DNA of 33,926 nucleotides from Clostridia bacterium (GCA_017501125.1 JAFVXN010000131.1:1-33926); one strand, 5' to 3'. Shown: positions 7,788 to 24,044, numbered from the stretch's first letter. The notes: generated from the sequence alone by a model not told the origin. A program made the numbers and translations.

Positions 7788-7804
7788 GGGTTTTTCTTCT
7801 TATA

Positions 7805-7890
7805 GGCTTCGCAATACTTCGTCGAGGCTCGCTTGCGTACTACCTGTACGCGCGCTTGCTTCTCCTTGTCTTGCTCGCCTCTAAAAAGAA
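7805..7890 (+). repeat. Intergenic structured repeat, unit A1 (type 1)
   Basis: GGCTTCGCAATACTTCGTCGAGGCTCGCTTGCGTAC-TACCT-GTACGCGCGCTTGCTTCTCCTTGTCTTGCTCGCCTCTAAAAAGAA. Starts 17 nt after the stop at 7787. Shares family words with units at 7902, 9119, 9888, 15498 and 23944. Confidence 0.9.
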
Positions 7891-7901
7891 AAGGGTGGAA
7901 G

Positions 7902-7988
7902 GGCTTCGCAATACTTTGTCGAGGCTCGCTTGCGTACTACCTGTACGCGCGCTTGCTCTCTTCTTGTCTTGCTCGCCCCTAAAAAGAA
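7902..7988 (+). repeat. Intergenic structured repeat, unit A2 (tandem to A1)
   Basis: Same unit 97 nt downstream of A1. It differs at only a handful of positions, including one 1-nt indel. Confidence 0.9.
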
Positions 7989-8014
7989 AGCAATTCCTAT
8001 GAAATTTTTGACAA

Positions 8015-8042
8015 ATACCGTCGTGATTTTTCACGGCGGTAT
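8015..8042 (+). terminator. Strong hairpin, possible terminator of the ferritin-like transcript
   Basis: ATACCGTCGTG-ATTTTT-CACGGCGGTAT: 11 bp with one G.U. It is followed by CTTTAC, so the U-tract is poor. Confidence 0.4.
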
Positions 8043-8043
8043 C

Positions 8044-8072
8044 TTTACAAACGGGCAGAAGTTTGCTATACT
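8044..8072 (+). promoter_or_regulatory. Promoter of the nitroreductase gene
   Basis: TTTACA (8044-8049), 17-nt spacer ending in TGc, TATACT (8067-8072). Confidence 0.6.
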
Positions 8073-8113
8073 ATATTAAAAAGATACGCCCACGCGCGTA
8101 TAAGGAGAAAGAG

Positions 8114-8638
8114 ATGAACGAAACTTTGCGTACCATTTTAGAAAGACGTAGCGTCAAAAAATACAAGCCCGACCCCGTCGCAAAAGACTTGATCGAGCAG
8201 GTAGTGGAGGCGGGTACCTTTGCCGCAACGGGCAGGAACCTGCAATCCCCGATTATCATCGCCGTCACCAACAAAGCGGTGCGTGACGAACTCTCCCGTA
8301 TCAACGCCGAGGTAATGGGCGCAAGTGGCGATCCCTTCTACGGCGCGCCCTGCGTGCTCGTCGTCCTCGCCGACAAATCAGTGTCGCGCAACTATATCTA
8401 CGACGGCTCCCTCGTGATGGGCAATCTTATGCTGGCGGCGACCTCGCTGGGGCTTGGTAGTTGCTGGATTCATCGCGCAAAGGAAACGTTCGAGTTGCCC
8501 GAAGGCAAAGCGCTCTTGAAAAAACTCGGTATCGACGGGGATTTTGAAGGAATCGGCAACTGTGTCATCGGCTATGCCGATTGTCCGCAACCTGAGGCAA
8601 AGCCCCGCAAGGAAAACTGGGTGTATTTTGTAGAATAA
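8114..8638 (+). CDS. Nitroreductase family protein
   Basis: Start at the ATG 8114 with an AAGGAGA RBS (the track ORF starts at 8063). MNETLRTILERRSVKKYK is the typical nitroreductase N-terminus. 174 aa. Confidence 0.88.
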   Translation: MNETLRTILERRSVKKYKPDPVAKDLIEQVVEAGTFAATGRNLQSPIIIAVTNKAVRDELSRINAEVMGASGDPFYGAPCVLVVLADKSVSRNYIYDGSLVMGNLMLAATSLGLGSCWIHRAKETFELPEGKALLKKLGIDGDFEGIGNCVIGYADCPQPEAKPRKENWVYFVE

Positions 8639-8686
8639 GCAATCCAAAATTTCCCAAAATAATTTTAACTTTTTTTGCATAACCTA

Positions 8687-8715
8687 TTGACAAGCCTAAT
8701 TCGATATGCTATTAT
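8687..8715 (+). promoter_or_regulatory. Promoter of the superoxide reductase gene
   Basis: TTGACA (8687-8692), 17-nt spacer ending in TGc, TATTAT (8710-8715). Confidence 0.65.
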
Positions 8716-8753
8716 TTAATTAGGATTGAATATCAATAAAGGAGAATGAATTG

Positions 8754-9113
8754 ATGAAAGTATACGTTTATTTATGTGAAAAATGCGGTAAGGCAGTAGT
8801 TTCCACGCACGAACTCAACGTGGAGGGATACAAACTGTTAGAGGCAGGCACGACGGATGCGGCGGTGGAAAAACACGTCCCCGTGGTGGAAAAGAGATGT
8901 GGCGAAATCAAGGTTAGCGTCGGCTCCGTTATGCACCCTGCAACGGCAGAACACTATATCGAGTGGGTGCTCCTCGTCTCCGACAACGGCTACCAACTCA
9001 AATATATCCCCGTAGGGCAAGAGGCGGTGGTAAGTTTCCGTCTGGGCAAGGGCGAAAAACTGCAAGAAGTCTACGCTTATTGCAATCTTCACGGTCTCTG
9101 GAAAGCCGACTAA
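8754..9113 (+). CDS. Superoxide reductase (desulfoferrodoxin/neelaredoxin family)
   Basis: Centre II ligand motifs are present: EKHVPV, MHPATAEHYIEW and YCNLHGLW. The N-terminal segment has only one CxxC (CEKCG) and lacks the second Cys pair of a desulforedoxin-type centre I. ATG at 8754, 8 nt after AAAGGAGA. Confidence 0.88.
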   Translation: MKVYVYLCEKCGKAVVSTHELNVEGYKLLEAGTTDAAVEKHVPVVEKRCGEIKVSVGSVMHPATAEHYIEWVLLVSDNGYQLKYIPVGQEAVVSFRLGKGEKLQEVYAYCNLHGLWKAD

Positions 9114-9118
9114 TCTGC

Positions 9119-9236
9119 CTATAAAATACGTCGCAATACTGCGTTGCGCTCCGTGCCGCTTTGCTTGCGTACGAAAAAGTACGCTCCCGTCAGCGGTACT
9201 CGCGCGCCTTGTCTTGCTTGTATTTTCCTACGGCAG
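9119..9236 (+). repeat. Intergenic structured repeat, unit B (type 2)
   Basis: CTATAAAATACGTCGCAATACT...GTGCCGCTTTGCTTGCGTAC-GAAAAA-GTACGCTCCCGTCAGCGGTACTCGCGCGCCTTGTCTTGCTTGTATTTTCCTACGGCAG. Starts 5 nt after the stop at 9113 and is followed by TTTTT. Confidence 0.9.
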
Positions 9237-9271
9237 TTTTTATGTGAATAATTTAATTTAAGAGGGTAATT

Positions 9272-9877
9272 ATGGACAAAAAGGCGATGTACAAATTGTC
9301 GTACGGGCTTTTCGTACTGACGGTCAACGACGGCAAAAAGGACAGTGGCTGTATCACCAATACGGTGATGATGATGACGGACAATCCTTGCAGGATAGTG
9401 GTTTTCGTCAACAATGCTAACTACACGGCGGAGGTCTTGAAAAAGACGGGCGTGTTCAACGTGTCCGTCCTTGCCGAGAGTGCGCCCTTCGATTTGTTCA
9501 AGCGTTTCGGTTTTCAAAGCGGTCGCGACGTGGACAAATTCGCGGATACAAAGTATCCGCGCGCAGAGAACGGGCTCCGCTATATCGACGAAAACGCCAA
9601 CGCGCTGATTAGTGCGAAAGTGGTGGATAAGTACGATTACGGCACGCATACCTTGTTCGTTGCCGAGGTGACGGACGCCGTCACGCTCTCTGAGGAAAAC
9701 AGCGTGACCTACGCCTATTATCAAGAGAATATCAAGCCCAAGGCAAACGCCCCCAAGGAAGAGGGCAAGGAAAAGTGGGTTTGTTCGGTATGCGGCTACG
9801 TGCACGAAGGACCCCTGCCTGAGGATTTTGTATGTCCTTGGTGTAAACATCCCGCCTCTGATTTTGTCAAAGCGTAA
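9272..9877 (+). CDS. Flavin reductase-like domain fused to a C-terminal rubredoxin (high-molecular-weight rubredoxin type)
   Basis: 201 aa. N-terminal flavin-reductase-like domain (YGLFVLTV...GCITNTV). C-terminal WVCSVCGY...CPWCKHP carries the two CxxC pairs of rubredoxin. Confidence 0.85.
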   Translation: MDKKAMYKLSYGLFVLTVNDGKKDSGCITNTVMMMTDNPCRIVVFVNNANYTAEVLKKTGVFNVSVLAESAPFDLFKRFGFQSGRDVDKFADTKYPRAENGLRYIDENANALISAKVVDKYDYGTHTLFVAEVTDAVTLSEENSVTYAYYQENIKPKANAPKEEGKEKWVCSVCGYVHEGPLPEDFVCPWCKHPASDFVKA

Positions 9878-9887
9878 AAATCAAAGA

Positions 9888-10068
9888 CGCATACTCGGCA
9901 CTATACTTCGTCGAGGTGCGTTTTTTGTTTGCTTGCGTACGCCTTAGTACGCGCGCTTCACAAAAAACTTCTCTCCTCGTCTATCACCAAGTCTTCGTCT
10001 TTGAGGGTGATGAGGATGCATCGTCGGTACTCGCGCTCCTTGTTTTGCTCGTATCTTCGCCTTTACCG
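9888..10068 (+). repeat. Intergenic structured repeat, locus C (one full type 1 unit plus a truncated second unit)
   Basis: CGCATACT..ACTTCGTCGAGGTGCGTTTTTTGTTTGCTTGCGTAC-GCCTTA-GTACGCGCGCTTCACAAAAAAC..CCTCG, then ..GTCTTCGTCTTTGAGGG...GGTACTCGCGCTCCTTGTTTTGCTCG. Starts 10 nt after the stop at 9877. Confidence 0.85.
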
Positions 10069-10081
10069 TATGATTAAATAT

Positions 10082-10114
10082 AAAACAGCGTAGGACAAAG
10101 CCACGCTGTTTTTT
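10082..10114 (+). terminator. Intrinsic terminator downstream of the rubredoxin-fusion gene and repeat C
   Basis: AAAACAGCGT, an 11-nt loop, then ACGCTGTTTT followed by TT. Confidence 0.7.
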
Positions 10115-10197
10115 CTTTGTGTAATGAAGATGATTTAAGGCAAAAAAGTCTTTTTTTGTCGAAAAGAAAAAATTGCCAAAAAGCACCGTAAAATAAC

Positions 10198-10226
10198 TTG
10201 ACAAGCCTTTTATAACTTGTTATAAT
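10198..10226 (+). promoter_or_regulatory. Consensus sigma-A promoter of rpsU
   Basis: TTGACA (10198-10203), exactly 17 nt, TATAAT (10221-10226). Confidence 0.8.
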
Positions 10227-10276
10227 CAGTAGCGTACTTGAAAAATAATGCGGTTGGCAAAGGAAGGTGAAAAAGG

Positions 10277-10453
10277 ATGTCCACGGTAAAAGTAGGCGAA
10301 AACGAGAACGTTGAAAGCGCCCTTCGTCGTTTCAAGAGAAAGTGCTCTCGCGACGGTATCATCGGCGACTTGAGAAAGAAAGAATTCTACGAAAAACCTT
10401 CCGTTAAGAGAAAGAAAAAATCGGAAGCCGCAAGAAAAAGAAGTAGAAACTAA
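10277..10453 (+). CDS. rpsU: 30S ribosomal protein S21
   Basis: Not in the track (58 codons). My translation is [75 protein letters not shown] region lies upstream. Confidence 0.92.
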
Positions 10454-10460
10454 TCAAGAG

Positions 10461-10487
10461 AACTCACGCAAAACGCGTGAGTTTTTT
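10461..10487 (+). terminator. Intrinsic terminator of rpsU
   Basis: CTCACGC-AAAAC-GCGTGAG followed by TTTTTT. Confidence 0.85.
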
Positions 10488-10558
10488 CTTTGCAAAAATT
10501 CTCCTTTTCGGGGCGTTTTTGTCGAAGAAAATCTAATAAAAAAGGAGGGGGTCGAAAG

Positions 10559-10960
10559 ATGACGGAGCGTAAAAGTTGCAGTTTGAAGGAGTACTCTCGC
10601 GCGGCGAAAGACCGTATCAAAAAGGGCTTTTGGGAGGACTGTCAAAAGGGGTACGACAGGAGCCTTTCCAAGGCAAAGGAACAGGGCGTCAACGAAAGCA
10701 AAGCAGGGCGGTATTTCAAAAGCAAGGTCGAAGGGCAGATCGCAGGCGAAAAGGAAGACGACTTTTATCTAAAAGTCAAACGGTTGATTTTGACAGAGGG
10801 CGAGGTCAGCGACGCGATAGGCAGATTGACGGACAAGCCCTATTACGACACGCTCACTTACGAGGAAAAACAGCGCTACACCCTCTCTTTGAGCGAGCGT
10901 TATCTGCGCGCCCTTGAGCGCTTTAGAAAGGAGTGCGAATTCGACGACATCAGCGGCTGA
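10559..10960 (+). CDS. Hypothetical protein (133 aa, Lys/Glu-rich, no recognisable motif)
   Basis: ATG at 10559, 7 nt after AAGGAGGGGG. The track ORF start at 10490 lies inside the rpsU terminator and is rejected. Confidence 0.55.
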   Translation: MTERKSCSLKEYSRAAKDRIKKGFWEDCQKGYDRSLSKAKEQGVNESKAGRYFKSKVEGQIAGEKEDDFYLKVKRLILTEGEVSDAIGRLTDKPYYDTLTYEEKQRYTLSLSERYLRALERFRKECEFDDISG

Positions 10961-10989
10961 TATAGGTGCTTAAAAAAAGGGTGAAACAC

Positions 10990-11018
10990 TTGCCTTTTTA
11001 TAGCCGTTGTGGTATAAT
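10990..11018 (+). promoter_or_regulatory. Promoter directly abutting the pcrA start codon
   Basis: TTGCCT (10990-10995), 17-nt spacer, TATAAT (11013-11018). The pcrA ATG starts at 11025, 6 nt after the -10 box. Confidence 0.55.
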
Positions 11019-11024
11019 AAAAAT

Positions 11025-13454
11025 ATGAGCGAAACGAAAGAAATTCTGGACAAATTAAACGAGGAACAGTTGGCCCCCGTCTTACAGACGGAAGGGCCTG
11101 TTTTGGTACTTGCTGGGGCGGGCAGTGGCAAGACGCGCGTGCTCGTCTCCCGTATCGCCTATCTCGTCGACGAGAAGGGGGTAAATCCTGCAGGGATACT
11201 CGCCATCACCTTCACCAACAAAGCGGCTGGCGAGATGAAAGAAAGGTTGTTCGGCGTCGTGCCGACTAGGGATATGTGGGTGTCCACCATTCACAGCATG
11301 TGCGTACGCATTTTGCGGGACTTTGCCAAAGAGGCAGGCTTAGAAAAAAACTTTTCGATATACAGCGAGACGGAGCGCAACAACGTCCTCAAAAAATCCT
11401 TTCAGGAGTGCGGTTTTGAAGACGAGAACCTCTTAAAGAGTGCAAAATACCACGTCGGCAACGCCAAGATGCTCGGCTATTCTCCCGAAAGATACGCGGA
11501 GGAATTCGCAGGGGAAAGAGACATCGAGGACGTGACGAAGATTTACGCGCGCTATCAAAAGCACCTGCGTGAAAACAACGCGCTCGACTTTGACGATTTG
11601 CTGAGCGAAACGCGCGATTTGCTCGCTAAGAACAAAGAGGTGCTCGAATACTTATCGGGTAGATTCCGCTATATTTTGGTGGACGAGTTCCAAGACACCA
11701 ACGCGGTGCAATACGAGATTATCAAGATGCTTGCCACCGTCCACGGCAACCTGTTCGTAGTAGGGGACGACGACCAGTCGATATACGGCTGGCGTGGCGC
11801 GAAGATTGAGAACATTTTGCACTTCGAAAAGGATTTTAGGGACGCGAAGGTTTTCAAGTTGCAACGCAACTACCGCTCCACGAAACAAATCTTAAACCTT
11901 GCCAACACCGTGATAAAGAACAACGGCAGGCGCAAGGAAAAGACCCTCTGGACGGAGAACGAGGAGGGGACGAAACCCAGATTGCACGAGGCGGACGAGG
12001 AGAGCGGCGAGGCAAGATACGTCGCGCAGACGATCGTCTCTTTGAGACGGCAGGGCTATCAATACAAGGATTTTGCGGTGCTGATGCGTCTCAACGCTTT
12101 GACCCGCTCCTTCGAGCAAGAATTCTCCGCGGACGGGATTCCTTTCAAGGTCTTCGGTGGCTTTAAGTTCTACGAAAGAAAGGAAATCAAAGATTTGCTC
12201 GCCTATTTGCGCCTTATCGCCAACCCGTTCGATAGCGAGGCGGCGGTGCGCATCATCAACTTCCCCAAGCGTGGCATCGGTGCCAAGACGGTGGAGGCGT
12301 TGATCCATTACGCCAACGAAACCAACTCCTCCGTCTACGACGCGTTGTTCGAGTTGGACGAAATCGGCTTTACGGGCGCGACCCGTCAAAAATTGGAGAA
12401 CTTTGCCACCCTCGTCAACAAGTGGATAAAAGACAGCATTTCCCTGTCCGTGGACGAGTTGGTCAAGAACATCGTTGCGGATACGAATATGCGTCTCGTA
12501 TACGGCGACGATAGCGACGATAGCCTCAACAAACTCGCCAACATTGACGAATTTATCAACGCCGTCGACGAATTTTGCAGGCTGAATCCGCAGGCGACCC
12601 TCGTCGATTATTTGGCGCAGGTCACCCTGTCTACGGATACGGACGAGATGGACGAGAGCGACTACGTGACGCTGGCGACCATTCACGCGGTCAAGGGGTT
12701 GGAATTCCCTTGCGTGTTCATCGTCGGCTTAGAGGAAAATATTATGCCCGTCTCTCGCGCCTCGTCCAGCGATACGGATTTGGAGGAGGAGAGAAGGCTG
12801 ATGTACGTCGCCATCACGCGCGCTAAGGAGTATCTTTGCCTCACCCGTAGCAAGTCGAGATTCCTCTACGGCAAAAGGGAACTCACGGGCAGGTCGCGCT
12901 TTATAAAAGAACTCGCCTCTGCCTTGGATATGCCCAAGGAAAAACCCCGTTACGGCGGTGGATACAATAGTGGCTACGGCGGCTACGGCAATAGCGGTAG
13001 GTATCGCGATTCGTCGGGCGACGACGATTTTTACAGTGAGAGCAATTACGGCGCGGCGCGATTTGGCGGCGGTAGCGGTGGCTATGGTGGCTACAACAAA
13101 TCCTCCTACGGTGGATACAACGGTGGCTATAACAAGTCCTACGGCGGCTACGATAGGCGCTACGACGAGGAGAGTTATAACAGATACTCGCCAGCCAACC
13201 CTAGCGTCTACGGCGGGAAGAAGGACAGTGGCGTCGCCTACGGGGGTAGTACCTCGTTCAAGCCGAAGGCGGAAAAGAGCGTCGACGTCTCCGTCTTTAA
13301 GGTGGGCGTGAGGGTGTCGCACGCAAAATTTGGCGACGGAATGATTGTCGGCGTGCACGGTGCAGGCAACAACACGATCGTGGACGTGGCGTTCACGGGA
13401 TACGGCATCAAGCAACTTTCGGCGACGATTGCGCCGCTTAAAATCATAGGATAA
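11025..13454 (+). CDS. pcrA: ATP-dependent DNA helicase PcrA/UvrD (superfamily 1) with an expanded Gly/Tyr-rich linker
   Basis: Helicase motifs AGAGSGKT, DEFQDTN, VGDDDQSIYGWRGA, TIHAVKGLEF and EEERRLMYVAITRA. C-terminal Tudor-like domain FKVGVRVSHAKFGDGMIVGV. The start is set at the ATG 11025 (MSETKEILDKLNEEQ) because the N-terminal length then matches PcrA. Confidence 0.93.
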   Translation: MSETKEILDKLNEEQLAPVLQTEGPVLVLAGAGSGKTRVLVSRIAYLVDEKGVNPAGILAITFTNKAAGEMKERLFGVVPTRDMWVSTIHSMCVRILRDFAKEAGLEKNFSIYSETERNNVLKKSFQECGFEDENLLKSAKYHVGNAKMLGYSPERYAEEFAGERDIEDVTKIYARYQKHLRENNALDFDDLLSETRDLLAKNKEVLEYLSGRFRYILVDEFQDTNAVQYEIIKMLATVHGNLFVVGDDDQSIYGWRGAKIENILHFEKDFRDAKVFKLQRNYRSTKQILNLANTVIKNNGRRKEKTLWTENEEGTKPRLHEADEESGEARYVAQTIVSLRRQGYQYKDFAVLMRLNALTRSFEQEFSADGIPFKVFGGFKFYERKEIKDLLAYLRLIANPFDSEAAVRIINFPKRGIGAKTVEALIHYANETNSSVYDALFELDEIGFTGATRQKLENFATLVNKWIKDSISLSVDELVKNIVADTNMRLVYGDDSDDSLNKLANIDEFINAVDEFCRLNPQATLVDYLAQVTLSTDTDEMDESDYVTLATIHAVKGLEFPCVFIVGLEENIMPVSRASSSDTDLEEERRLMYVAITRAKEYLCLTRSKSRFLYGKRELTGRSRFIKELASALDMPKEKPRYGGGYNSGYGGYGNSGRYRDSSGDDDFYSESNYGAARFGGGSGGYGGYNKSSYGGYNGGYNKSYGGYDRRYDEESYNRYSPANPSVYGGKKDSGVAYGGSTSFKPKAEKSVDVSVFKVGVRVSHAKFGDGMIVGVHGAGNNTIVDVAFTGYGIKQLSATIAPLKIIG

Positions 13455-13463
13455 GGAAAGGTT

Positions 13464-15407
13464 ATGGACGAACAAAGACGGATTACCGACAAGTTAAACG
13501 AGTGGGCGCATCAGTACTACGTGCTGGACAATCCCACCGTGTCGGACAAGGAATACGACGCGCTGTACGACAGGCTAAAAGCGCTGGAGGCGGAGAGCGG
13601 CGTCGTCTTTGACGACAGCCCGACGAGAAGGGTGGGCGGCGAAGTGCTCAAAGGCTTCCAAAAACACGACCATATCGCAAGGCTGTACAGTCTGGACAAG
13701 GCGACGACGAAAGAGGAGTTGTCCGCCTTTCTTACGCGCGCGCAAAAGGCGGCGGGTAAAACGCCTACGTGCACGGTAGAGTATAAGTTCGACGGGCTGA
13801 CGGTTTGTTTGACGTACGACAAGGGCAAATTCGTACGGGCGACGACGCGAGGCAACGGCAAGACGGGCGAGGACGTGACGGCGCAGGTGCTGACGATTAA
13901 ATCCTTCCCTTTGAAGATATCCTACCAAGGCACGTTGGAGGTGCGTGGCGAGACGGTGATTAGATTGTCCGTGCTGGATAAGTATAACGAAAGCGCGGCA
14001 GAGCCACTCAAGAACGCGCGCAACGCGGCGGCAGGCGCTATCCGCAACCTCGACCCGAAGGTGACGCAGGCAAGGAAACCCGATATCTATTTTTACGACG
14101 TCAACTACCTTTCGCAAGGGGAGGAGATGTCGCAGATAGCGGCGCACGATTTCTTGGTCGCGGAAGGGTTTAAGGTATTCCCGTATTTTAGGGTGTGCAA
14201 GGACGAGGCGGCGTTGTTCGACGCCATCGACGAGATAGAAAGGCAGAGAAAAGAGATAGACGTCCTGACGGACGGCGCGGTCATCAAAATCGACGAAGTC
14301 GCCGTGCGTGAGGATATGGGCTACACGGACAAATTCCCCCGCTGGGCAATCGCCTACAAGTTCGAGGCGGAGGAGGTGACAACCCTCTTAAAAGGGGTAA
14401 TTTGGCAGGTGGGGCGCACGGGCAAACTCACGCCGCTTGCGCTACTCGACCCCGTCGATTTGGGTGGGGCGACGGTATCGAGGGCGACCCTCAACAACTA
14501 CGGCGATATCGTGAGAAAGGACGTCAAAATCGGCTCTCGCGTGCTGGTGAGAAGGTCCAACGAAGTTATCCCCGAAATCCTCGGCGCGACGGAACATTAC
14601 GCGGAAAGTAGAGAGGTGGAAAAGCCGACCGTATGCCCCTATTGCGGGCAAGATTTGCAAGAAATCGGCGCGCACCTTTTCTGTCCCAACCGCGATTGCG
14701 TGCCTAGGTTGGTGGCAAAACTCGACCACTTCGCAGGGAAGAACGCGATGGATATCGAAGGATTTTCGGAGAGCACCGCGACCTTGCTCGTCGAGAAGAA
14801 AGGGGTGAAAAATTTTGCCGATTTGTATGCGCTTCGTGCGGATGATTTGCAGGATTTGGAAGGGTTCAAAGACAAGAAAATCGGCAACTTGTTGTCGGGG
14901 ATTGAAAGGAGCAAACAAGCGCCTTTGGACGCCTACCTTTTTGCAATCGGCATCGACGGCGTAGGCAGGGTAGCGGCGAAGGATTTGGCAAAGAAATTCA
15001 AAAGCGTCGACGGGCTGAAAGGCGCGACGGAGGCAGAACTCGTCGCGATGGAAAACGTAGGCGAAATCACGGCGAAAGGGATCGTCTCCTATTTTGCGGA
15101 CGAGGACAACGCCCTGCAACTGGCAAGGCTCAAAGAGATCGGGATAGATCCCGTCTGGGCGGAAGAAGAAAAGGCAGGGATATTCTTAGGCGAGGCGGTC
15201 GTTTTGACGGGCACGCTGGAAAAATTCAAGCGTAGCGAGGCGCAAAAACTCATCGAAGAAAGGGGCGGCGAGGTGCTCTCCTCCGTGACGGCAAAGACGA
15301 CGCTGGTCGTCGCAGGCGAGGCGGCAGGGAGCAAACTGGACAAGGCGAAAAAACTCGGCGTCAAGGTAATCGACGAGGCGGAGTTCGTCGCGATGCTGGA
15401 TAAATAA
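13464..15407 (+). CDS. ligA: NAD-dependent DNA ligase
   Basis: 647 aa. Adenylation motif EYKFDGL, a Cys4 zinc finger (CPYCG...CPNRDC), HhH repeats and a C-terminal BRCT domain (VVLTGTL...). It sits in the conserved position downstream of pcrA. Confidence 0.95.
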   Translation: MDEQRRITDKLNEWAHQYYVLDNPTVSDKEYDALYDRLKALEAESGVVFDDSPTRRVGGEVLKGFQKHDHIARLYSLDKATTKEELSAFLTRAQKAAGKTPTCTVEYKFDGLTVCLTYDKGKFVRATTRGNGKTGEDVTAQVLTIKSFPLKISYQGTLEVRGETVIRLSVLDKYNESAAEPLKNARNAAAGAIRNLDPKVTQARKPDIYFYDVNYLSQGEEMSQIAAHDFLVAEGFKVFPYFRVCKDEAALFDAIDEIERQRKEIDVLTDGAVIKIDEVAVREDMGYTDKFPRWAIAYKFEAEEVTTLLKGVIWQVGRTGKLTPLALLDPVDLGGATVSRATLNNYGDIVRKDVKIGSRVLVRRSNEVIPEILGATEHYAESREVEKPTVCPYCGQDLQEIGAHLFCPNRDCVPRLVAKLDHFAGKNAMDIEGFSESTATLLVEKKGVKNFADLYALRADDLQDLEGFKDKKIGNLLSGIERSKQAPLDAYLFAIGIDGVGRVAAKDLAKKFKSVDGLKGATEAELVAMENVGEITAKGIVSYFADEDNALQLARLKEIGIDPVWAEEEKAGIFLGEAVVLTGTLEKFKRSEAQKLIEERGGEVLSSVTAKTTLVVAGEAAGSKLDKAKKLGVKVIDEAEFVAMLDK

Positions 15408-15451
15408 CCCTAAAAAGTGGCAAAACCCACGAAGAAAAGGGGGCTACGCAC

Positions 15452-15480
15452 TTGAAATTTAGAAAAATCTTTGCTATAAT
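15452..15480 (+). promoter_or_regulatory. Near-consensus promoter of the yicC-gmk-rpoZ transcript
   Basis: TTGAAA (15452-15457), 17-nt spacer ending in TGc, TATAAT (15475-15480). Confidence 0.75.
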
Positions 15481-15497
15481 AGCAAAGTAAAGCAGTG

Positions 15498-15614
15498 CTT
15501 ATAAAATACTTCGCAATACTTCATTGTGTTTTGTGCCGATTTGGTCGTGTGCGTCCAAGTACACTCCCTTCATCAGTACTCGCGCCTTGTCTTGCTTGTA
15601 TTTTTTGACGGCAG
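15498..15614 (+). repeat. Intergenic structured repeat, unit D (type 2), located in a 5' leader
   Basis: CTTATAAAATACTTCGCAATACT...GTGCCGATTTGGTCGTGTGC-GTCCAA-GTACACTCCCTTCATCAGTACTCGCGCCTTGTCTTGCTTGTATTTTTTGACGGCAG. The 3' module matches unit B except for a CG indel. Confidence 0.9.
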
Positions 15615-16534: not shown

Positions 16535-16537
16535 GCG

Positions 16538-17098
16538 ATGAGGAACGTATTGATGATAGTGTCCGGACCTTCGGGCGTCGGCAAAGGTACGCTCGTAAAG
16601 AGGTTGATTAAAGAGCGCGAGGACGTGACCGAGTGCGTCACCTGTACGACGCGTGCGCCGAGGGCTGGCGAGGTTCACGGACGGGAATATTTTTTCCTTA
16701 GCAAAGAGGAGTTCGAGAGACGGATACAAGAGGACGGCTTTTTAGAATACGACAAGCATTTCGACAACTACTACGGCACGCCAAAGGCGTTCGTGGAAGA
16801 GACGCTTAAAAGTAAGTCGGTGGTGCTGGAGATTGACGTCGTCGGCGCACTCAACGCAAAAAAGGTGTATCCCGACAGCGTGCTCGTGATGATAGCGCCC
16901 CCGTCGAAAGAGGTGCTTGCCGCAAGGCTGAGGGGCAGGGGCACGGAGACGGACGAGGAGATAGCGCGTAGGCTTTCGAGGCTGAATTACGAATTGTCAC
17001 AACAAGACAAGTACGACCACGTCCTTATCAACGACGACTTGGAGACGGCGTATAACAATTTGTGCAACTTATTAGACGAAGAAAAAAATAAACAATAA
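16538..17098 (+). CDS. gmk: Guanylate kinase
   Basis: 186 aa with the SGPSGVGKGT P-loop, in the conserved position before rpoZ. Confidence 0.93.
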   Translation: MRNVLMIVSGPSGVGKGTLVKRLIKEREDVTECVTCTTRAPRAGEVHGREYFFLSKEEFERRIQEDGFLEYDKHFDNYYGTPKAFVEETLKSKSVVLEIDVVGALNAKKVYPDSVLVMIAPPSKEVLAARLRGRGTETDEEIARRLSRLNYELSQQDKYDHVLINDDLETAYNNLCNLLDEEKNKQ

Positions 17099-17116
17099 AC
17101 GGAAAGGAGAATAAAT

Positions 17117-17335
17117 ATGGTAAACGAACCTGCAGTAGACGTTTTGATTAGAAAATTGGGCACGGACGAAGAACCGATTAGCAGATATGCGCTGTGCACC
17201 GTCGCATCTAAACGCGCAAGACAAATTTTGGAGACGGAAAGAAACGCTTCCGTTCCTTCCAACACGAAAGAGAAGGAACTTTTGACTGCGTGCAAGGATA
17301 TCGCGGACGGAAAAGTAATCATCGCGAAGGACTAA
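17117..17335 (+). CDS. rpoZ: DNA-directed RNA polymerase subunit omega
   Basis: 72 aa. ISRYALCTVASKRARQI is the conserved omega core. AAAGGAGA RBS. Confidence 0.9.
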   Translation: MVNEPAVDVLIRKLGTDEEPISRYALCTVASKRARQILETERNASVPSNTKEKELLTACKDIADGKVIIAKD

Positions 17336-17342
17336 TATCGCG

Positions 17343-17373
17343 TTGCCCCGATTATGTCGGGGCAATTCGTTTT
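17343..17373 (+). terminator. Hairpin with a partial U-tract after rpoZ (terminator or attenuator before priA)
   Basis: TTGCCCCG-ATTATGT-CGGGGCAA followed by TTCGTTTT. Confidence 0.55.
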
Positions 17374-17388
17374 GCAAGAGGGGTATAG

Positions 17389-19563
17389 ATGATAGCGGAA
17401 GTAATCGTGGATATTGCCACGGGTGCGACGGACAGGATATTCGATTATCTTTGTGCTGACGATACGGTAATCGGCAGCAGAGTTCGCGCGCCCTTTGGCG
17501 GTAGGACGCTTTGCGGATTCGTCATCGGCACGAAGGAAACGTCCACCTTCCCTGCGGAGCGACTGAAAAAAGTAATCCCTTGCGAGGACGGCTTGCCCGC
17601 CCTGACGGGGGAGTGTCTTTCGCTCGCGAAAAAAATCGCGCGTCGCTATCGTGTACCGCTCGCCTCCTCGCTTAGGCTGTTTTTGCCTGCCGAGATGCGG
17701 ACGGGCAAGGTCAGGGAACTGACGAAGAACTACGCGAGCCTGTGCGTGCCTTTTGCGGAAATCAAATTGCCGAAATCGGCAAAGAACCAACTCGCCGTCG
17801 CGCAATATTTAGAGGCGCACGGGGAGACGGAGTGCGCCTATCTCAACAACTTGTACGCAGGTGGCGTTGCGGCTCTGGAAAAGAAGGGGTACGTCAATAT
17901 CGTCAAAAAACAAGTCCTGCGCAACCCCTACGACGGGGTGGAAGGGGAAGACGTCGCGCGCACCCTCTCGCCCGAGCAGGCGGCGGCAATCGCCGAGATA
18001 GAAAGGGACGATAGGACGGTGCAACTGTTGCACGGCGTCACGGGCAGTGGCAAGACGGAGGTGTATCTTCGCCTCATCGCCGACAGCCTTAGACGTGGGA
18101 AATCGGCGATCTTTTTAGTCCCCGAGATATCCTTGACGCCGCAGATGCTCTCCCAACTCCGCGCCCGTTTTGGGCGCAACGCCGCGATTTTGCACAGCGG
18201 TCTTTCCGCGGGCGAACGATTTGACGAGTGGTGGCGGCTGAGAAGTGGCGAGGCAAAGATAGCCATCGGCGCGAGGAGTGCGATATTTGCTCCGTTGGAA
18301 AATTTGGGCGTCGTCGTAATGGACGAGGAACACGACTCCTCTTATCATAGCGAGACGTCGCCGAGATACTCCACCTTCGAGATAGCGCGCCTTCGCGCTA
18401 TGCACAGCGGTTGCAAGTTGGTGTTGGGCAGTGCGACCCCCTCCGTCGACACCTTTTTGAAGGCGAGGGAAGGGGAATACAATCTTTTGCCGATGAAGAC
18501 GCGCATCAACGGAAAACCGTTGCCTGAGATTACCATCGTGGATATGCGCCGCGAGGTGCGCAGGGGGAATCAAAGCAACTTTTCCGCCACCTTAAAAGAG
18601 GAACTGGCAAAGTGCCTAGAAAGCGGCAATCAGGCGATACTTTTCCTTAATCGCAGAGGGTATTCCCAGACGGTAGTCTGCAAGGAGTGCGGCTACGTGG
18701 CAAAGTGCCTTTCCTGCGACGTTTCCTTGACCTATCACCGCGCGGAAGATTGTCTTAAATGCCACTATTGCGGCACGAAATACAACGCCCTTTCCGCCTG
18801 TCCAGAGTGCGGTGGGACGAAACTCACCTACGCAGGCACGGGTACGCAAAGGATTGCGGCGGAACTCAACAAACTATTCCCCGAGGCAAGAATTTTGCGT
18901 ATGGACAACGACACGACGTCGGGCAAGGAAGGGCATCTAAAAATCATCAAAGAATTCGGTGAGAAGAAAGCGGATATTTTGGTCGGTACGCAGATGATTG
19001 CCAAAGGGCACGATTTCCCTGCCGTCACGTTGGTGGGGATATTAGACGCGGATATGAGCCTACACTTTGCCGATTATAGGAGTGGGGAGCGAACTTTCCA
19101 ACTCATCACGCAGGTATCGGGTAGGAGTGGCAGAGCCAAGGAAAAGGGGAAGGTCGTCTTGCAGACGTACGACCCCGAGAACGAGGTTTTGCGCTACGCC
19201 ACGGCGTACGATTACGAGGGTTTTTTCGACAACGAAGTATCTCTGCGCCGAGGGGCGATGTACCCGCCTTTTTCCAAGATCGTGCGCGTGCTCGTCACCA
19301 GCGAAGACAGCGAAAAAGCGATTGCAACGCTTAAGGACGTCTACGTCGCGCTGGAAAAGATTTACGAGGCGCACACCTCCGCATTCCTCTTTTTCAACAA
19401 GATGAGCGCGCCTATTAAAAAGATACAGAACAAATACCGCTATCAGGTGCTGATGCGGATTATTGATACGAAGATATTGCAAGAGATTTACGACGCCTGT
19501 GCCGAGGCGGGGCGGAGAGAAGTTAGCGTGACGGTGGAAGAAAATCCTGTCAATTTAAGTTAA
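17389..19563 (+). CDS. priA: Primosomal protein N' (replication restart helicase PriA)
   Basis: 724 aa. GVTGSGKTEVY Walker A, MDEEHD motif, and a Cys-rich zinc insert (CKECGYVAKCLSCDVSLTYH...CHYCG...CPECG). Confidence 0.94.
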   Translation: MIAEVIVDIATGATDRIFDYLCADDTVIGSRVRAPFGGRTLCGFVIGTKETSTFPAERLKKVIPCEDGLPALTGECLSLAKKIARRYRVPLASSLRLFLPAEMRTGKVRELTKNYASLCVPFAEIKLPKSAKNQLAVAQYLEAHGETECAYLNNLYAGGVAALEKKGYVNIVKKQVLRNPYDGVEGEDVARTLSPEQAAAIAEIERDDRTVQLLHGVTGSGKTEVYLRLIADSLRRGKSAIFLVPEISLTPQMLSQLRARFGRNAAILHSGLSAGERFDEWWRLRSGEAKIAIGARSAIFAPLENLGVVVMDEEHDSSYHSETSPRYSTFEIARLRAMHSGCKLVLGSATPSVDTFLKAREGEYNLLPMKTRINGKPLPEITIVDMRREVRRGNQSNFSATLKEELAKCLESGNQAILFLNRRGYSQTVVCKECGYVAKCLSCDVSLTYHRAEDCLKCHYCGTKYNALSACPECGGTKLTYAGTGTQRIAAELNKLFPEARILRMDNDTTSGKEGHLKIIKEFGEKKADILVGTQMIAKGHDFPAVTLVGILDADMSLHFADYRSGERTFQLITQVSGRSGRAKEKGKVVLQTYDPENEVLRYATAYDYEGFFDNEVSLRRGAMYPPFSKIVRVLVTSEDSEKAIATLKDVYVALEKIYEAHTSAFLFFNKMSAPIKKIQNKYRYQVLMRIIDTKILQEIYDACAEAGRREVSVTVEENPVNLS

Positions 19564-19574
19564 AGGAGAAGGTT

Positions 19575-20027
19575 ATGGCAATTCGTAGCGTAGTACAAAA
19601 CGGGGACGAAGTCCTCCGCAAAAAATGTTTTCCCGTCGAGGAATTCGACGAAAAATTGTGGCAACTTTTAGACGATATGAAAGAGACGGTCATCAAAGAG
19701 GAAGGGGCAGGTCTTGCCGCGCCTCAGGTGGGGGTATTGAGACGGGTAGCCGTCGTCAACGTCGACGAGGGGTATTTTGAACTCATCAACCCCGTCATCA
19801 TCGCCCAAAAAGGGGAACAAACGGGGCTGGAAGGGTGTCTTTCCGTGCGCGGTATGCAAGGGGAGGTCTCCCGTCCGCAAAAGGTAAAATTCACCTATTA
19901 CGACAGGAACGGCAACAAGTGTTTGGGGATGGCGAAGGGCTTTTTTGCACGCGCCGTCTGTCACGAACTTGACCACCTCGACGGCGTGTTGTATATTGAC
20001 AAAGCGAAGAATATCGAAAGGGTATAA
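19575..20027 (+). CDS. def: Peptide deformylase
   Basis: 150 aa with the GAGLAAPQVG, EGCLS and HELDH motifs. Confidence 0.95.
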   Translation: MAIRSVVQNGDEVLRKKCFPVEEFDEKLWQLLDDMKETVIKEEGAGLAAPQVGVLRRVAVVNVDEGYFELINPVIIAQKGEQTGLEGCLSVRGMQGEVSRPQKVKFTYYDRNGNKCLGMAKGFFARAVCHELDHLDGVLYIDKAKNIERV

Positions 20028-20030
20028 TCT

Positions 20031-20969
20031 ATGAAAATTCTCTATGCAGGCACCCCTGATTTTGCCGTCGCACCCCTGAAAGCGTTGGTGGAGGCAGGCC
20101 ACGAAGTGGTGGGGGTCGTCACCCAAACGGACAAGCCGCAAGGCAGAAAAAATATTTTGACACCGCCACCCGTAAAAGTGGCGGCGCTCTCCCTTGGTTT
20201 GCCCGTCGTGCAGTACGAGAGAATCAAGACGGAGGTGGACGGGTTGTCCGCCTTTGGCGCCGACGCGATGGTGACCTGTGCCTACGGGCAGATTCTCACC
20301 CAAGAGGTGCTGGACGTCTTCCCTAAGGGGGTGTGGAATATCCACGCAGGGCTGTTGCCGAAGTATCGTGGCGCGTCCCCTATCCAGAGCAGTATTCTCG
20401 CGGGCGAAAGGGAGACGGGCGTATGCATTATGCGTACGGAACGAGGTCTTGACACGGGGGATATCCTACTCGTTAAAAGGACGGAGATTACGCCCGAGGA
20501 GACGTACGGAGAACTTTCCGCGAGGCTCTCTCTTATCGCGGCAGAGGCAATCGTTGAAGGGATTGCGGCGATAGAAAAGGGCGGATACACCCTTGAAAAG
20601 CAGGGCGAAGAAGGGGTCGGCGTCGTCAAAAAAATCGAAAAGGAAGCGGCGAAGATGGACTTTTCCATGACAGCGAAAGGGCTCGTCGATCTGGTACGCG
20701 CTTTCAATCCCGCGCCCGTGGCGTACGCGATTTTAGAGGGCGCAAAAATTAACGTATATCGGGCAAAAATCGCCGTTATGCAAGAGGAATATGCCGTGGC
20801 AAAACTCGGCGAAATCGTGTGTGATTCTCCCAAAAAAGGGTTGCTCGTGCGCTGCGCCGACGGGGTGATTGCGCTGACGGAGTTGCAGCCTGCAGGTGGT
20901 AAAAAAATGGACGCCGCCTCTTTCCTCAACGGTAGAAAAGCGCAAAAGGGGCAGGTGTTTACATGGTAA
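20031..20969 (+). CDS. fmt: Methionyl-tRNA formyltransferase
   Basis: 312 aa. HAGLLPKYRGASPIQ motif. Follows def by 3 nt. Confidence 0.94.
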   Translation: MKILYAGTPDFAVAPLKALVEAGHEVVGVVTQTDKPQGRKNILTPPPVKVAALSLGLPVVQYERIKTEVDGLSAFGADAMVTCAYGQILTQEVLDVFPKGVWNIHAGLLPKYRGASPIQSSILAGERETGVCIMRTERGLDTGDILLVKRTEITPEETYGELSARLSLIAAEAIVEGIAAIEKGGYTLEKQGEEGVGVVKKIEKEAAKMDFSMTAKGLVDLVRAFNPAPVAYAILEGAKINVYRAKIAVMQEEYAVAKLGEIVCDSPKKGLLVRCADGVIALTELQPAGGKKMDAASFLNGRKAQKGQVFTW

Positions 20970-22201
20970 GCAATCCCGTCTACGACCCCTATCAAATTCT
21001 ACAAAAAGTATACGGCGAAAAGGCGCACTTAAAGCAGGCGATTGCGGACGTTTTTATTGAGGAACAGTACCGCTCGCGCACGGTCAAGATATGCTACGGC
21101 GTGTTGGAGAACAACGACTATCTCGATTATTGTCTGCGCTTTTACGCGCCTAAGGCGCCAAAACTCGCCGTGCGCATCCTCTTAAAGATTGCGCTGTATA
21201 TGCTCCTGTATATGGGCAAGAAAAGGTATATGGTCACCGATTGCACCGTCGAGATTTGCAAGAAGTTAGGCAAGAGCGGTGTCAGCGGTTTCGTCAACGC
21301 GTTTTTGCGCCGTTTCAACGAGGACGAGGTCAAATCCTCCCTTCTAAAAGGAGTGGAGGGCGAGGCGATTCTTTGTGCCTATCCTTTGCCTTTTTATAGG
21401 CGTCTTAAAAGGGAATACGGCGACAGGGCAAAGACGATTGCTTTGGCGAAATCTTCTGGCGTGTCCGTCCGTTTTGCCTCCGCCAAGGCGGCGGAAAAAT
21501 ACGCCGATAAAAAGGGCGTTGAAACCCCTTTTAAGGGCAACGTCATCTACGAGAATTTCGTCCGCGACGAGGGATACGACGAGGGGGAATACACTTTCCA
21601 GTCGGTGGGGAGTATTGCCATTTGTGACGTGGTCGACCCCTGTGAAAAATTGCTAGACGCGTGTGCGGCACCTGGTGGAAAATCGGTGCTCCTCTCCCAA
21701 AAATGCACCGCCGTGACCGCTTGCGAATTGCACGATCACAGGGTGCGTTTAATCGAGCAGTATTTTGCTCGTATGGGGGTGAAGAACGCCACGGCTATGC
21801 AGGCGGACAGCAGTGCGTTCAATCCCGATTTTGAAGGGGCGTACGACGGCGTGCTTTGCGACGTGCCTTGCAGTGGCTACGGTACGGTGACGGAGAATCC
21901 CGACGTCAAATTATTCCGTGTGGAAGAGGATATGGGCTCGCTCAAAAAAGCGCAGGCGGCAATCTTGAAAAATTGCGCGAAATACGTCCAGAAAGGCGGC
22001 GCGCTGTACTACTCCACCTGTTCCCTTTTCGAGGAGGAAAACGATAGCCAAATCGGCAGATTTTTACAGGAAGTCGAGGGCTTTGAGGTGGAGTCGATAG
22101 ACAGCCCCTTGCCGCACGACAAGAAAAAATACGGGCTTCAATTTTTGCCTGATATCGCCTACGGTGCGGGCTTTTACGTATGTAGGTTGAGAAGAAGATA
22201 A
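20963..22201 (+). CDS. rsmB: 16S rRNA (cytosine-C5)-methyltransferase RsmB
   Basis: 412 aa. NusB-like N-terminus and methyltransferase motifs DACAAPGGKS, DVPCSG and STCS. Overlaps the fmt stop by 7 nt (ATGGTAA). Confidence 0.9.
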   Translation: MVSNPVYDPYQILQKVYGEKAHLKQAIADVFIEEQYRSRTVKICYGVLENNDYLDYCLRFYAPKAPKLAVRILLKIALYMLLYMGKKRYMVTDCTVEICKKLGKSGVSGFVNAFLRRFNEDEVKSSLLKGVEGEAILCAYPLPFYRRLKREYGDRAKTIALAKSSGVSVRFASAKAAEKYADKKGVETPFKGNVIYENFVRDEGYDEGEYTFQSVGSIAICDVVDPCEKLLDACAAPGGKSVLLSQKCTAVTACELHDHRVRLIEQYFARMGVKNATAMQADSSAFNPDFEGAYDGVLCDVPCSGYGTVTENPDVKLFRVEEDMGSLKKAQAAILKNCAKYVQKGGALYYSTCSLFEEENDSQIGRFLQEVEGFEVESIDSPLPHDKKKYGLQFLPDIAYGAGFYVCRLRRR

Positions 22202-23256
22202 TGATAGGGATTTTGCAAGATTTTTCCAAGGCGGAATTAGAAAATTTAATAGCCGAAATGGGCGAGAAAAAATTCCGCGCGGCACAACTTTTCGAGGGGT
22301 TGACGCAGGGAAAAAAAGTGAGCGAAATCACCTCGTTGTCCAAGTCTTTCAAAGAGAGACTTTTAGAAGGGTACGAAGACGCGCCGATTACGATCGAGCA
22401 GGAATATCACTCTAAAGACGGCACGAAAAAATATCTTTTCCGTCTTGCCGACGGGCACCTGATCGAAGGGGTGCTGATGAAGTACAAATACGGCTACACG
22501 CAATGCGTGTCGACGCAGGTGGGGTGTCGTATGGGTTGCAAGTTTTGCGCCTCCACGTTGGGCGGGCTTATCCGCAACCTTTCCGCGGGCGAAATCCTTG
22601 CCCAAATCACCCTCGTCAACGCCTTGCATAAGGAGGAAAAATCGGGGGATAGCAAGGGCGCAAGGGCGGTCACCAACGTCGTGCTTATGGGCAGTGGCGA
22701 ACCTTTGGACAATTACGACAACGTCGTCAAATTCCTTCGGTTGATTACGGCGGAGGAAGGCTTTGGAATGAGCGCGCGGAATATCTCTCTTTCCACCTGT
22801 GGGATAGTGCCTAAGATGTACGCTTTGGCGGAGGAAAATTTGCCCGTCAACCTCACCGTTTCCCTGCACGCGACGACGGACGAGGAAAGGGTCAGGACGA
22901 TGCCGATTGCCAAGGCGTATAAGATAGCGGACGTCTTGAAAGCGTGTGAAAATTACTTTGCGAAGACGGGCAGAAGATACTACTTCGAGTACACGCTAAT
23001 TGACGGTGAGAATTGCGACGAGGAGCACGCAAAACGGCTGATAGACCTACTTAAAGGCAAGCCCTGTCACGTCAACCTTATCCGCCTCAACGAGGTCAAG
23101 GAAAGGTCGCTTTCGGCGGCGACGGACAAGAAGGCGTACCGTTTTTTGGGGATGTTGGAAAAGGGCGGACTCTCCGCCACCTTGCGTCGCCAAATCGGCG
23201 TCGATATAGGTGGTGCCTGTGGACAACTCCGCGCCGATTATTTACAAGAGAAATAA
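22201..23256 (+). CDS. rlmN: 23S rRNA/tRNA (adenine-C2)-methyltransferase RlmN (radical SAM)
   Basis: 351 aa. CRMGCKFC (CX3CX2C) cluster motif and MGSGEPL. TAATG overlap with the rsmB stop. Confidence 0.93.
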   Translation: MIGILQDFSKAELENLIAEMGEKKFRAAQLFEGLTQGKKVSEITSLSKSFKERLLEGYEDAPITIEQEYHSKDGTKKYLFRLADGHLIEGVLMKYKYGYTQCVSTQVGCRMGCKFCASTLGGLIRNLSAGEILAQITLVNALHKEEKSGDSKGARAVTNVVLMGSGEPLDNYDNVVKFLRLITAEEGFGMSARNISLSTCGIVPKMYALAEENLPVNLTVSLHATTDEERVRTMPIAKAYKIADVLKACENYFAKTGRRYYFEYTLIDGENCDEEHAKRLIDLLKGKPCHVNLIRLNEVKERSLSAATDKKAYRFLGMLEKGGLSATLRRQIGVDIGGACGQLRADYLQEK

Positions 23257-23275
23257 CCTTTATAAGGAGTAAAAT

Positions 23276-23929
23276 ATGAAAGAAATCAAGATTGCGCCGT
23301 CCATATTGTCGGCGGACTTTTCCAAGATGGGCGAGGAGGTAATCTCGCTGGAAAAAGCGGGCGCGGATATCATCCATTGCGACGTGATGGACGGGGTGTT
23401 CGTCAACAACATCACCTTCGGTATCAAGATGGTAGAGGATCTTAGGAAGGTGACCAAATTGCCTCTCGATTGCCACCTTATGATAGTCAATCCCGAAAAA
23501 TACGTGGAGAGGTTTGCCAAGGCGGGCGCGGATATTATCACCGTCCACTACGAGGCGTGCAAAGAGGGTTTGAAAGACACCTTGCAACGCATCAAAGATT
23601 GCGGTGTAAAATGCGGCGCGGTCATCAATCCCGACACTCCCGTCGAGAAGATTAAAGACGTGATTCCTATGTGTGATATGGTGCTGGTGATGAGCGTTTT
23701 TCCTGGTTTTGGCGGTCAAAAATTTATCGTCGACGCCCTTGATAAGTTGCGTCAGGTTAAGGCGATTATTGAGGCGTGTGGCAAGGATATCGACCTGCAG
23801 ATAGACGGTGGCGTAGGGATAGACAACGTAGCCGCAGTCAAAGAGGCAGGCGCCAACGTAATCGTCGCGGGTAGTGCGGTCTTTAAGGCGGAGGATCGTG
23901 CGGCTACTATAAGCGCCTTAAAATCCTAA
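23276..23929 (+). CDS. rpe: Ribulose-phosphate 3-epimerase
   Basis: 217 aa. Motifs APSILSADF, HCDVMDGVFVNN and MSVFPGFGGQKF. Confidence 0.95.
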   Translation: MKEIKIAPSILSADFSKMGEEVISLEKAGADIIHCDVMDGVFVNNITFGIKMVEDLRKVTKLPLDCHLMIVNPEKYVERFAKAGADIITVHYEACKEGLKDTLQRIKDCGVKCGAVINPDTPVEKIKDVIPMCDMVLVMSVFPGFGGQKFIVDALDKLRQVKAIIEACGKDIDLQIDGGVGIDNVAAVKEAGANVIVAGSAVFKAEDRAATISALKS

Positions 23930-23943
23930 AAGCCGTATATGCG

Positions 23944-24044
23944 GCGCGATACGGCGTCGAGGTGCGTTGGTTGCTTGGTCGCGTACGTCTAAGTACGCTC
24001 CCGTCACAACCGCCTTCTCTCCTTGTCTCGCTTGCATCTACGCC
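23944..24044 (+). repeat. Intergenic structured repeat, unit E (type 1)
   Basis: GCGCGATACGGCGTCGAGGTGCGTTGGTTGCTTGGTCGCGTAC-GTCTAA-GTACGCTCCCGTCACAACCGCCTTCTCTCCTTGTCTCGCTTGCATCTACGCC. Starts about 14 nt after the rpe stop. Confidence 0.85.

Follow-up and report, generated by a model that had tools for sequence, protein, structure and literature searches.

Genomic context and the repeat units

The DNA analysed here, a stretch of 33,926 nt from a Clostridia bacterium (GCA_017501125.1, JAFVXN010000131.1:1-33926; hereafter the window), is a Firmicutes-type housekeeping region with nearly all genes on the + strand. The gene order is fhs, a class I Glu/Gln-tRNA synthetase, a nitroreductase, a desulfoferrodoxin-family gene, a flavin reductase-rubredoxin fusion, pcrA, ligA, yicC and gmk, followed by priA, def, fmt, rsmB, rlmN, rpe, asp23, fakA and recG. 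The DNA identity between the window and syntenic “Ca. Scatosoma” contigs is 65–76%, and the source organism is probably a Christensenellales member that has not been cultured. An initial annotation, made from the sequence alone, described a family of related repeat units in the intergenic spacers of this region, and it is this family that is treated in the following.

Careful inspection of the window showed that the repeat family is real. Seven units make it up; they are spread over five intergenic spacers and each lies on the + strand. The shared words by which the units had been recognised were all recovered in place. The word TCGCAATACT has four exact matches (7809, 7906, 9131 and 15511), all on the + strand, where shuffled sequences lead one to expect 0.10. 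There are also four exact matches of CTTGTCTTGCT, with one-mismatch copies in units C (10039) and E (24022); at up to one mismatch this word gives eight matches against 0.49 expected, two of which (5240 and 17001) lie inside open reading frames (ORFs) and are unrelated. The palindrome GCGTAC-N5/6-GTACGC is found five times against an expectation of 0.00, and unit D carries a compensated variant of it, GTGTGC...GTACAC. A repeat finder paired A1 with A2 (98% over 56 nt), B with D (78% over 90 nt) and C with E (77% over 100 nt). Furthermore, a covariance model (R1), built from 40 Clostridia-type copies and no enterobacterial sequence, matched the 34-kb window at six places corresponding to the seven units and at nothing else, on a single strand and with E-values of 1e-10 to 1e-26. 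The coordinates given for the individual units below are the spans of these matches, extended for unit C to include its second 3' end.

Unit A1 (7795-7889, + strand; R1 69.9 bits) starts 8 nt past the stop of the ORF at 6474-7787 and is a short form without the middle helix, with an RNA fold of -30.6 kcal/mol (z -4.1). Its neighbour A2 (7892-7987, + strand; 48.2 bits) is a tandem copy of A1 with a period of 97 nt, in which the 5' outer arm has been replaced by junction sequence. The two are thus tandem as originally described, but are better regarded as a 97-nt tandem duplication than as two independent insertions. Unit B (9118-9232, + strand; 97.6 bits) lies in the spacer that separates the desulfoferrodoxin-family gene from the flavin reductase-rubredoxin gene; its hairpin closes at 9115/9236, is followed by TTTTT and has a fold of -48.6 kcal/mol (z -4.9). 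Unit C (9884-10064, + strand), located 3' of the flavin reductase gene, is composite as had been suggested, and can be refined by repeat finder and fold to one full unit (9884-10001; 61.4 bits) with an extra internal hairpin (approximately 9974-10017) and a second 3' end (10034-10064). It precedes a terminator-like hairpin at 10082-10112. Unit D (15497-15610, + strand; 76.6 bits, fold z -2.3) is not located after a stop codon but in the 5' leader of yicC (start codon 15657), 16 nt past a promoter-like site, TTGAAA-17-TATAAT (15452-15480, + strand; 11 of 12 matches, with a TG extension), which is context outside the repeat. Unit E (23930-24046, + strand; 99.2 bits) lies between rpe, whose stop is at 23929, and a gene for a DUF6440 protein (24069-24275).

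Stop codons of ORFs were confirmed at 7787, 9113, 9877 and 23929, the units hold no ORF, the window genes include neither a transposase nor an integrase, and no clear target-site duplication flanks the window copies, all in agreement with the initial annotation.

Three small oxidative-stress-linked genes are found in a row at 8115-9877, encoding a nitroreductase, a 120-aa desulfoferrodoxin-family protein and the flavin reductase-rubredoxin fusion, and they are bracketed by units A, B and C. On a “Ca. Scatosoma” contig (L057) three tandem copies are located 3' of the desulfoferrodoxin-family gene. The association between long spacers and repeats noted in the initial annotation has an exception between gmk and priA, where a gap of 290 nt (17099-17388) holds no repeat unit; this gap probably contains a small gene below the ORF cut-off of 80 aa.

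Fold and anatomy of the element

Each unit forms one long imperfect hairpin (z -2.3 to -4.9). The units are 90–125 nt long in the window, and the copies of a proteobacterial subtype (see below) are approximately 150 nt long with a hairpin of 52 pairs; both are single long hairpins. On the sense strand, two conserved words pair as GCAATAC/GTCTTGC (box 2) with a fixed U.C mismatch, and in unit E this pair is compensated to GCGATAC/GTCTCGC. Outside of it lies a second box (box 1), ATAnnC/GnnTCT, again with a U.C mismatch, and the two boxes are separated by an asymmetric internal loop. The outer stem past box 1 is different in every copy, although the arms are inverted repeats throughout and the outermost 6–12 nt stay complementary while varying from copy to copy. 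Inside the boxes follow variable helices and then a conserved apical hairpin, GGTCACGTAC-loop-GTACGCTCC. Read from the outside in, the complementary strand, which is the better-pairing one, presents a variable outer stem, then box 1 as AGAnnC/GnnTAT and, after an internal loop rich in purines, box 2 as GCAAGAC/GTATTGC, each box with a G.A mismatch, and finally variable helices and the conserved apical hairpin GGGAGCGTAC-loop-GTACGTGACC. The purines of the internal loop are conserved, and the stems are variable in sequence but conserved in structure.

The fold is supported by covariation. Across the 40 Clostridia-type copies 95.3% of the cells pair, compared with 75.3% in shuffles and 21–45% when the partners are slid, and 19 of the 29 pairs have changes on both sides (compensatory). 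A U-tract after the hairpins is not a feature of the class, as a T-rich window follows 12 of 125 copies and an A-rich window 16 of 125; unit B is the only one in the window with TTTTT 3' of the hairpin.

Independent folding of the two strands gave the complement of the sense strand the greater stability in 118 of 128 copies, on average by 8.5 kcal/mol. Units B, D and E of the window depart from this, their sense strand being slightly the better folder. What are U.C mismatches and a UCA/CU loop on the sense strand read on the complement as G.A mismatches, a tandem G.A/A.G and a G.U pair. In the paired columns of three alignments, read on the complement and with structures predicted on the minus strand, G.U outnumbers A.C by 55:12, 130:9 and 183:50, and a similar excess of G.U was found in the outer stems when both alignment and structure were derived from the sense strand. 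From established mutation patterns, a bias in the opposite direction would be expected if the cause were deamination, whether it affected the non-template strand or the lagging-strand template. Pairing is thus kept mostly on the antisense strand relative to the genes, which speaks against a simple RNA element of the sense strand. The family of sense-oriented, hairpin-forming units holds, whereas its reading as a sense-strand RNA element is weakened by the better fold of the antisense strand.

Distribution of the family

A strict pattern, TCGCAATACT-N40-70-CTTGTCTTGCT, was scanned across 185,579 species-representative genomes and matched at least 120 genome loci, where approximately 8 chance matches are expected by our own estimate. 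The hosts among the matches listed include Christensenellales, Christensenellaceae, “Ca. Scatosoma”, “Ca. Coproplasma”, other metagenome-assembled genomes (MAGs) of gut Clostridia and two Clostridium isolates, and further Gallionellaceae (Sideroxydans, Gallionella, Sideroxyarcus), Uliginosibacterium, Arenimonas, Motilimonas and Fibrobacter. Confinement to this one contig, which the initial annotation had named as grounds for abandoning the family, is thereby contradicted, as the family is not special to this genome and occurs in several phyla. The strict pattern had no match in viral contigs, and a blastn search with the element gave no match in E. coli genomes or plasmids.

R1 identified 127 copies in 576 kb of Clostridia and Fibrobacter loci, often as head-to-tail arrays of two or three, and within a locus the copies are nearly always on a single strand. 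As a negative control we used 80 metagenome loci (508 kb) encoding relatives of the window flavin reductase with 51–62% identity, which are not orthologous sites. R1 found no copies in these 508 kb, and we therefore regard the model as specific and the family as patchy among gut Clostridia.

Searching Rfam 15 at the gathering thresholds gave no matches in the window, in line with the earlier failure to recognise a named RNA family. A permissive search (E up to 10) of 7780-10120 returned just two unrelated weak matches, both outside the units. A literature search using the sequence words returned primers only, and we did not find the family described in the literature searched.

Some Gallionellaceae copies carry nested insertions of approximately 47–55 nt in one hairpin arm, the 5' arm at loci L002, L033, L108 and L113 and the 3' arm at L069 and L096. 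These appear to be subfamilies or the result of secondary small insertions.

Position and orientation relative to genes

Orientation was counted using a crude ORF-based gene call. In the Clostridia and Fibrobacter loci, copies with co-directional neighbours are sense in 52 cases and antisense in 6, while 20 copies lie between convergent and 7 between divergent genes. The corresponding numbers for the proteobacterial subtype are 13 sense, 4 antisense, 6 convergent and 6 divergent. The start of the model is located a median of 11.5 nt past the upstream stop codon. What was noted in the window, namely sense orientation and a location close to stop codons, thus extends to the family as a whole. 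The sense bias is 35:1 where the neighbours follow the local gene majority and 4:3 where they oppose it, which hints at a replication-linked component, although this comes from few copies and a crude proxy. The genes next to the copies are unrelated in function.

Occupied and empty sites and flanking duplications

In comparisons with other genomes, the family behaves as mobile DNA. At the dapF/DUF484 junction of Sideroxydans, one locus (L116) carries a copy, whereas in another (L026) the element is missing and the genes overlap; a copy between DUF484 and xerC is common to both. Similarly, a “Ca. Scatosoma” contig (L034) has a copy directly past the def stop, where the def-fmt spacer of the window is 3 nt long. 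In the dapF-DUF484-xerC operon (L116 4219-5147 and L026 533-2787) the intercistronic spacer is essentially the element alone.

The ends of the proteobacterial subtype have a fixed frame, GGnnnCC...GGnnnCC. Just outside this frame, direct repeats of at least 4 nt are found in 7 of 18 copies, where 1.5 are expected and none of 2000 shuffles gave more than 6. The repeats are TTAT, TTTA, ATAA, TTGA, ATGA, TTAA and TAAT; in several cases the left-hand one contains the upstream stop codon and the right-hand one the downstream ATG. Duplication of an ATGA-type junction would leave both genes intact, which would explain how the element can reside inside operons.

Relationship to ERIC

The initial annotation did not recognise the consensus as ERIC, which is nevertheless the closest described family: models of the two find each other, they share the apical hairpin GTCACNTAC...GTANGCTCC, and they show a like strand asymmetry. 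[quoted passage not shown]

An ERIC (RU-1) sequence (PMC2759123) was aligned with the family. Its apical hairpin, GTCACTTAC-loop-GTAAGCTCC, is identical to that of some Clostridia copies. Shared blocks are CTGCGTT in the 5' arm and CCTTG.CT.GC and AACTCGAAT..TTT.G.G in the 3' arm, the last of these being common to ERIC and the proteobacterial subtype. In all of five enterobacterial loci searched, from E. coli, Rahnella, Citrobacter, Salmonella and Serratia, R1 gave the first rank to the ERIC copy, with a full-length match in the same orientation; the E-values, from lowest to highest, were 2.6e-5, 5e-5, 7e-4, 5e-3 and 0.015, and the scores 15–24 bits. In the reverse direction, a model of seven ERIC copies (R3) placed unit E first in the window, in the same orientation (18.5 bits, E 0.005), and gave units B and C 6–7 bits only. 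A model of the proteobacterial subtype (R2) ranked ERIC first, weakly, in 4 of 5 loci; under default filters this model is too narrow to pick up ERIC. The strand asymmetry of the family is present in 6 of the 7 ERIC copies. Further likeness lies in the general build, as both are long imperfect palindromes of approximately 90–150 nt (ERIC, a MITE of Enterobacterales, has a reference size of 127 bp) that are non-coding, intergenic, beside or between co-directional genes, and found in tandem or in multiple copies.

There are also clear differences. ERIC does not conserve box 2 (GCAATAC/GTCTTGC), and in the Clostridia subtype no duplication is consistently seen. The hosts of ERIC are Enterobacterales and Vibrionaceae, whereas the family is found in Clostridia, in Beta- and Gammaproteobacteria outside Enterobacterales, and in Fibrobacter. 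Because the scores are modest and roughly calibrated, box 2 is not conserved and the duplications differ, the family looks, at the level of sequence, like a distant relative of ERIC within a superfamily and not like ERIC proper.

Comparison with other repeat systems

The Correia/NEMIS elements of Neisseria, RUP of S. pneumoniae and bcr1 of B. cereus resemble the family in being small, non-coding, hairpin-forming, multi-copy and intergenic and probably in being co-transcribed, and share flanking duplications in A/T-rich targets with its proteobacterial subtype. They differ in that each is restricted to one genus or species group. A variant of the Correia terminal repeat, ...aatcaggacaa (PMC5039591), resembles ...AAGCAAGACAA of the family; this comes from a comparison with 28-nt terminal variants and is a lead only.

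REP/BIME sequences, with their RAYT transposases, are likewise abundant extragenic palindromes 3' of genes, with a hairpin that is read by its structure in the single-stranded form. REPs are described as 20–40 nt long, with a GTAG or CGTC head and alternating orientation in BIMEs (PMC3733652). We rejected this assignment, as the units are 90–150 nt long and form head-to-tail arrays on a single strand, CGTC precedes box 2 in some copies only, and no Y1 transposase was seen.

A likeness to the attC sites of integrons is found in the folded architecture, which is conserved although sequence and length vary and which consists of two boxes with mismatched bases, a spacer that is unpaired and a tip that is variable, in the bottom strand being the better folder, and in the location directly 3' of ORFs in one orientation. 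An assignment to attC was nevertheless rejected, as the base of the hairpin has no RYYYAAC/GTTRRRY boxes, the window holds no integrase and the flanking genes are housekeeping operon genes. A further difference is that in Sideroxydans it is the element alone that is present or absent between the same genes.

The BRE repeat of Bordetella (PMC3110155) is similar in being approximately 90 bp long, intergenic, arranged in tandem arrays and found in Betaproteobacteria. It was discarded since it has 69% G+C and the form TTTTTTGGCCGCGGGCCGCCCAAGGC..., and none of the words of the family occur in the published list (PMC3110155). A SPRITE-type terminator-like repeat was discarded on the U-tract counts given above, as the hairpins are not, as a class, directly followed by a U-tract.

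Nature of the element

The units are small, non-coding and numerous (7 units in 34 kb), and copies are present or absent between related genomes, as is typical of MITEs. We consider it probable that they represent a mobile, non-autonomous hairpin of the MITE kind, which a transposase moves in trans, which inserts at A/T-rich gene ends and is retained for the most part in a single orientation, and which is co-transcribed in the window. The superfamily is widespread and its closest described member is the ERIC/IRU of enterobacteria; the family is thus previously unnamed and unusually widespread, but not of a new kind. A transposase acting in trans would move the element, which would land in A/T-rich sequence at gene ends. 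On landing, a stop codon or an ATGA junction would be duplicated, so that both neighbours are left intact, and the copies would persist mainly in one orientation. The window copies would be co-transcribed with their neighbours as hairpins of 3' untranslated regions, intercistronic spacers and leaders. By analogy with ERIC in Yersinia, these hairpins may most plausibly act on mRNA processing or decay.

Several observations weigh against a MITE-like element related to ERIC. No transposase was found near the copies, and no full-length parent element was found by pattern scans spanning up to 600 bases between the ends. The Clostridia-type copies, including those of the window, have no convincing target duplication; in this subtype automatic end-finding is defeated by variable outer stems and by A/T-rich flanks, which lengthen the predicted hairpin. 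The variation of the outer stems from copy to copy is itself not what is usual where a transposase recognises terminal inverted repeats. Where diverged genomes have copies at matching positions, as the window and L057 do after the desulfoferrodoxin gene, this may reflect retention by selection rather than recent movement. Regarding ERIC, the link consists of weak scores (the 15–24 bits given above) with roughly calibrated E-values, and R2 reaches ERIC at E 0.004–0.7 only. Furthermore, ERIC duplicates TA and has the ends TATAC...GTATA (PMC2229807), whereas the proteobacterial subtype duplicates 4 nt outside its GGnnnCC ends.

A different and unlikely explanation is that the element is a site acting as folded single-stranded DNA, similar to attC or to the sites of REP and IS200/IS605 elements, with an enzyme reading the bottom-strand hairpin through its boxes, mismatches and purine-rich loop. 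The orientation of a copy relative to the replication fork would then decide its activity or stability. The better fold of the sense complement in the large majority of copies, the excess of G.U over A.C on that strand, the conservation of structure over variable stems together with that of the internal-loop purines, and the hint of a replication link in the dependence of the sense bias on the local gene majority are all consistent with such a site. The 4-nt duplications of the proteobacterial subtype, however, point to a staggered double-strand cut, and HUH transposases and attC recombination leave no flanking duplications. In addition, the hairpin base has no AAC/GTT triplets, and no integrase or Y1 transposase is found near the window copies. 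Elsewhere no protein family is enriched next to the element: all-against-all clustering of 731 ORFs from the loci revealed no enriched neighbour, be it a transposase, an integrase or a reverse transcriptase. The replication proxy is moreover crude and based on small numbers, and the G.U counts rely on structures predicted from the minus strand. It is a rather improbable speculation that the boxes, the G.A mismatches and the purine-rich loop of the antisense strand constitute the recognition site of one conserved enzyme on folded single-stranded DNA, and that the family, including ERIC, is a phylum-crossing site of the attC/REP kind. If this were true, replication-fork orientation would decide which copies are retained, and the family would point to the long-missing enzyme that moves ERIC.

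It is also doubtful that the units are a selected, cis-acting structured RNA that is no longer mobile, serving as a processing site, as a stabiliser against exonucleases or as the site of an RNA-binding protein. Their strong sense orientation right past stop codons and inside operons would fit such a role, as would the abundant compensatory changes and conserved loop nucleotides, the copies at matching positions in diverged genomes, the better sense-strand fold of units B, D and E, and the precedent of ERIC with its orientation-dependent effects on mRNA (PMC2229807). Across the family, however, it is the antisense strand that folds better, and the neighbouring genes are functionally unrelated. 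The differences between occupied and empty sites, the flanking duplications, and the high density and tandem arrays are further evidence against it, as is the absence of a U-tract after the hairpins and of an Rfam family. Finally, chance similarity or an assembly artefact of one contig has a negligible probability, given word counts far above those of shuffles, the R1 E-values in the window and at least 120 loci in other assemblies.

The near-invariant boxes of 10–11 nt in Clostridia, Beta- and Gammaproteobacteria and Fibrobacter imply that small elements of this type either cross phyla or are very old. ERIC has been a typing target for decades, and the wider host range reported here provides more genomes for a search for the partner enzyme by co-occurrence. 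The contrast between sense-biased copies and pairing kept on the antisense strand is testable in complete genomes. In practical terms, the copies are dense in the housekeeping operons of gut Christensenellales and should be masked or annotated in MAGs, where unmasked copies can seed spurious ORFs, assembly breaks and false calls of non-coding RNA.

Additional features of the window

A separate direct repeat of 50 nt is located at 33674-33723 and 33865-33914, in the non-coding tail past a DUF1846 gene. The two copies are 88% identical and 191 nt apart, and had no Rfam match at E up to 1. By eye, a promoter-like sequence, TTGACT...TATAAT, precedes the copy at 33865-33914.

The pcrA/uvrD ORF (11007-13454) contains Gly/Tyr-rich DNA repeats (TACGGCGGTGGATAC...) at 12951-13167. 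They form an unusual low-complexity insert that separates the helicase C-terminal domain from the PcrA tudor domain.

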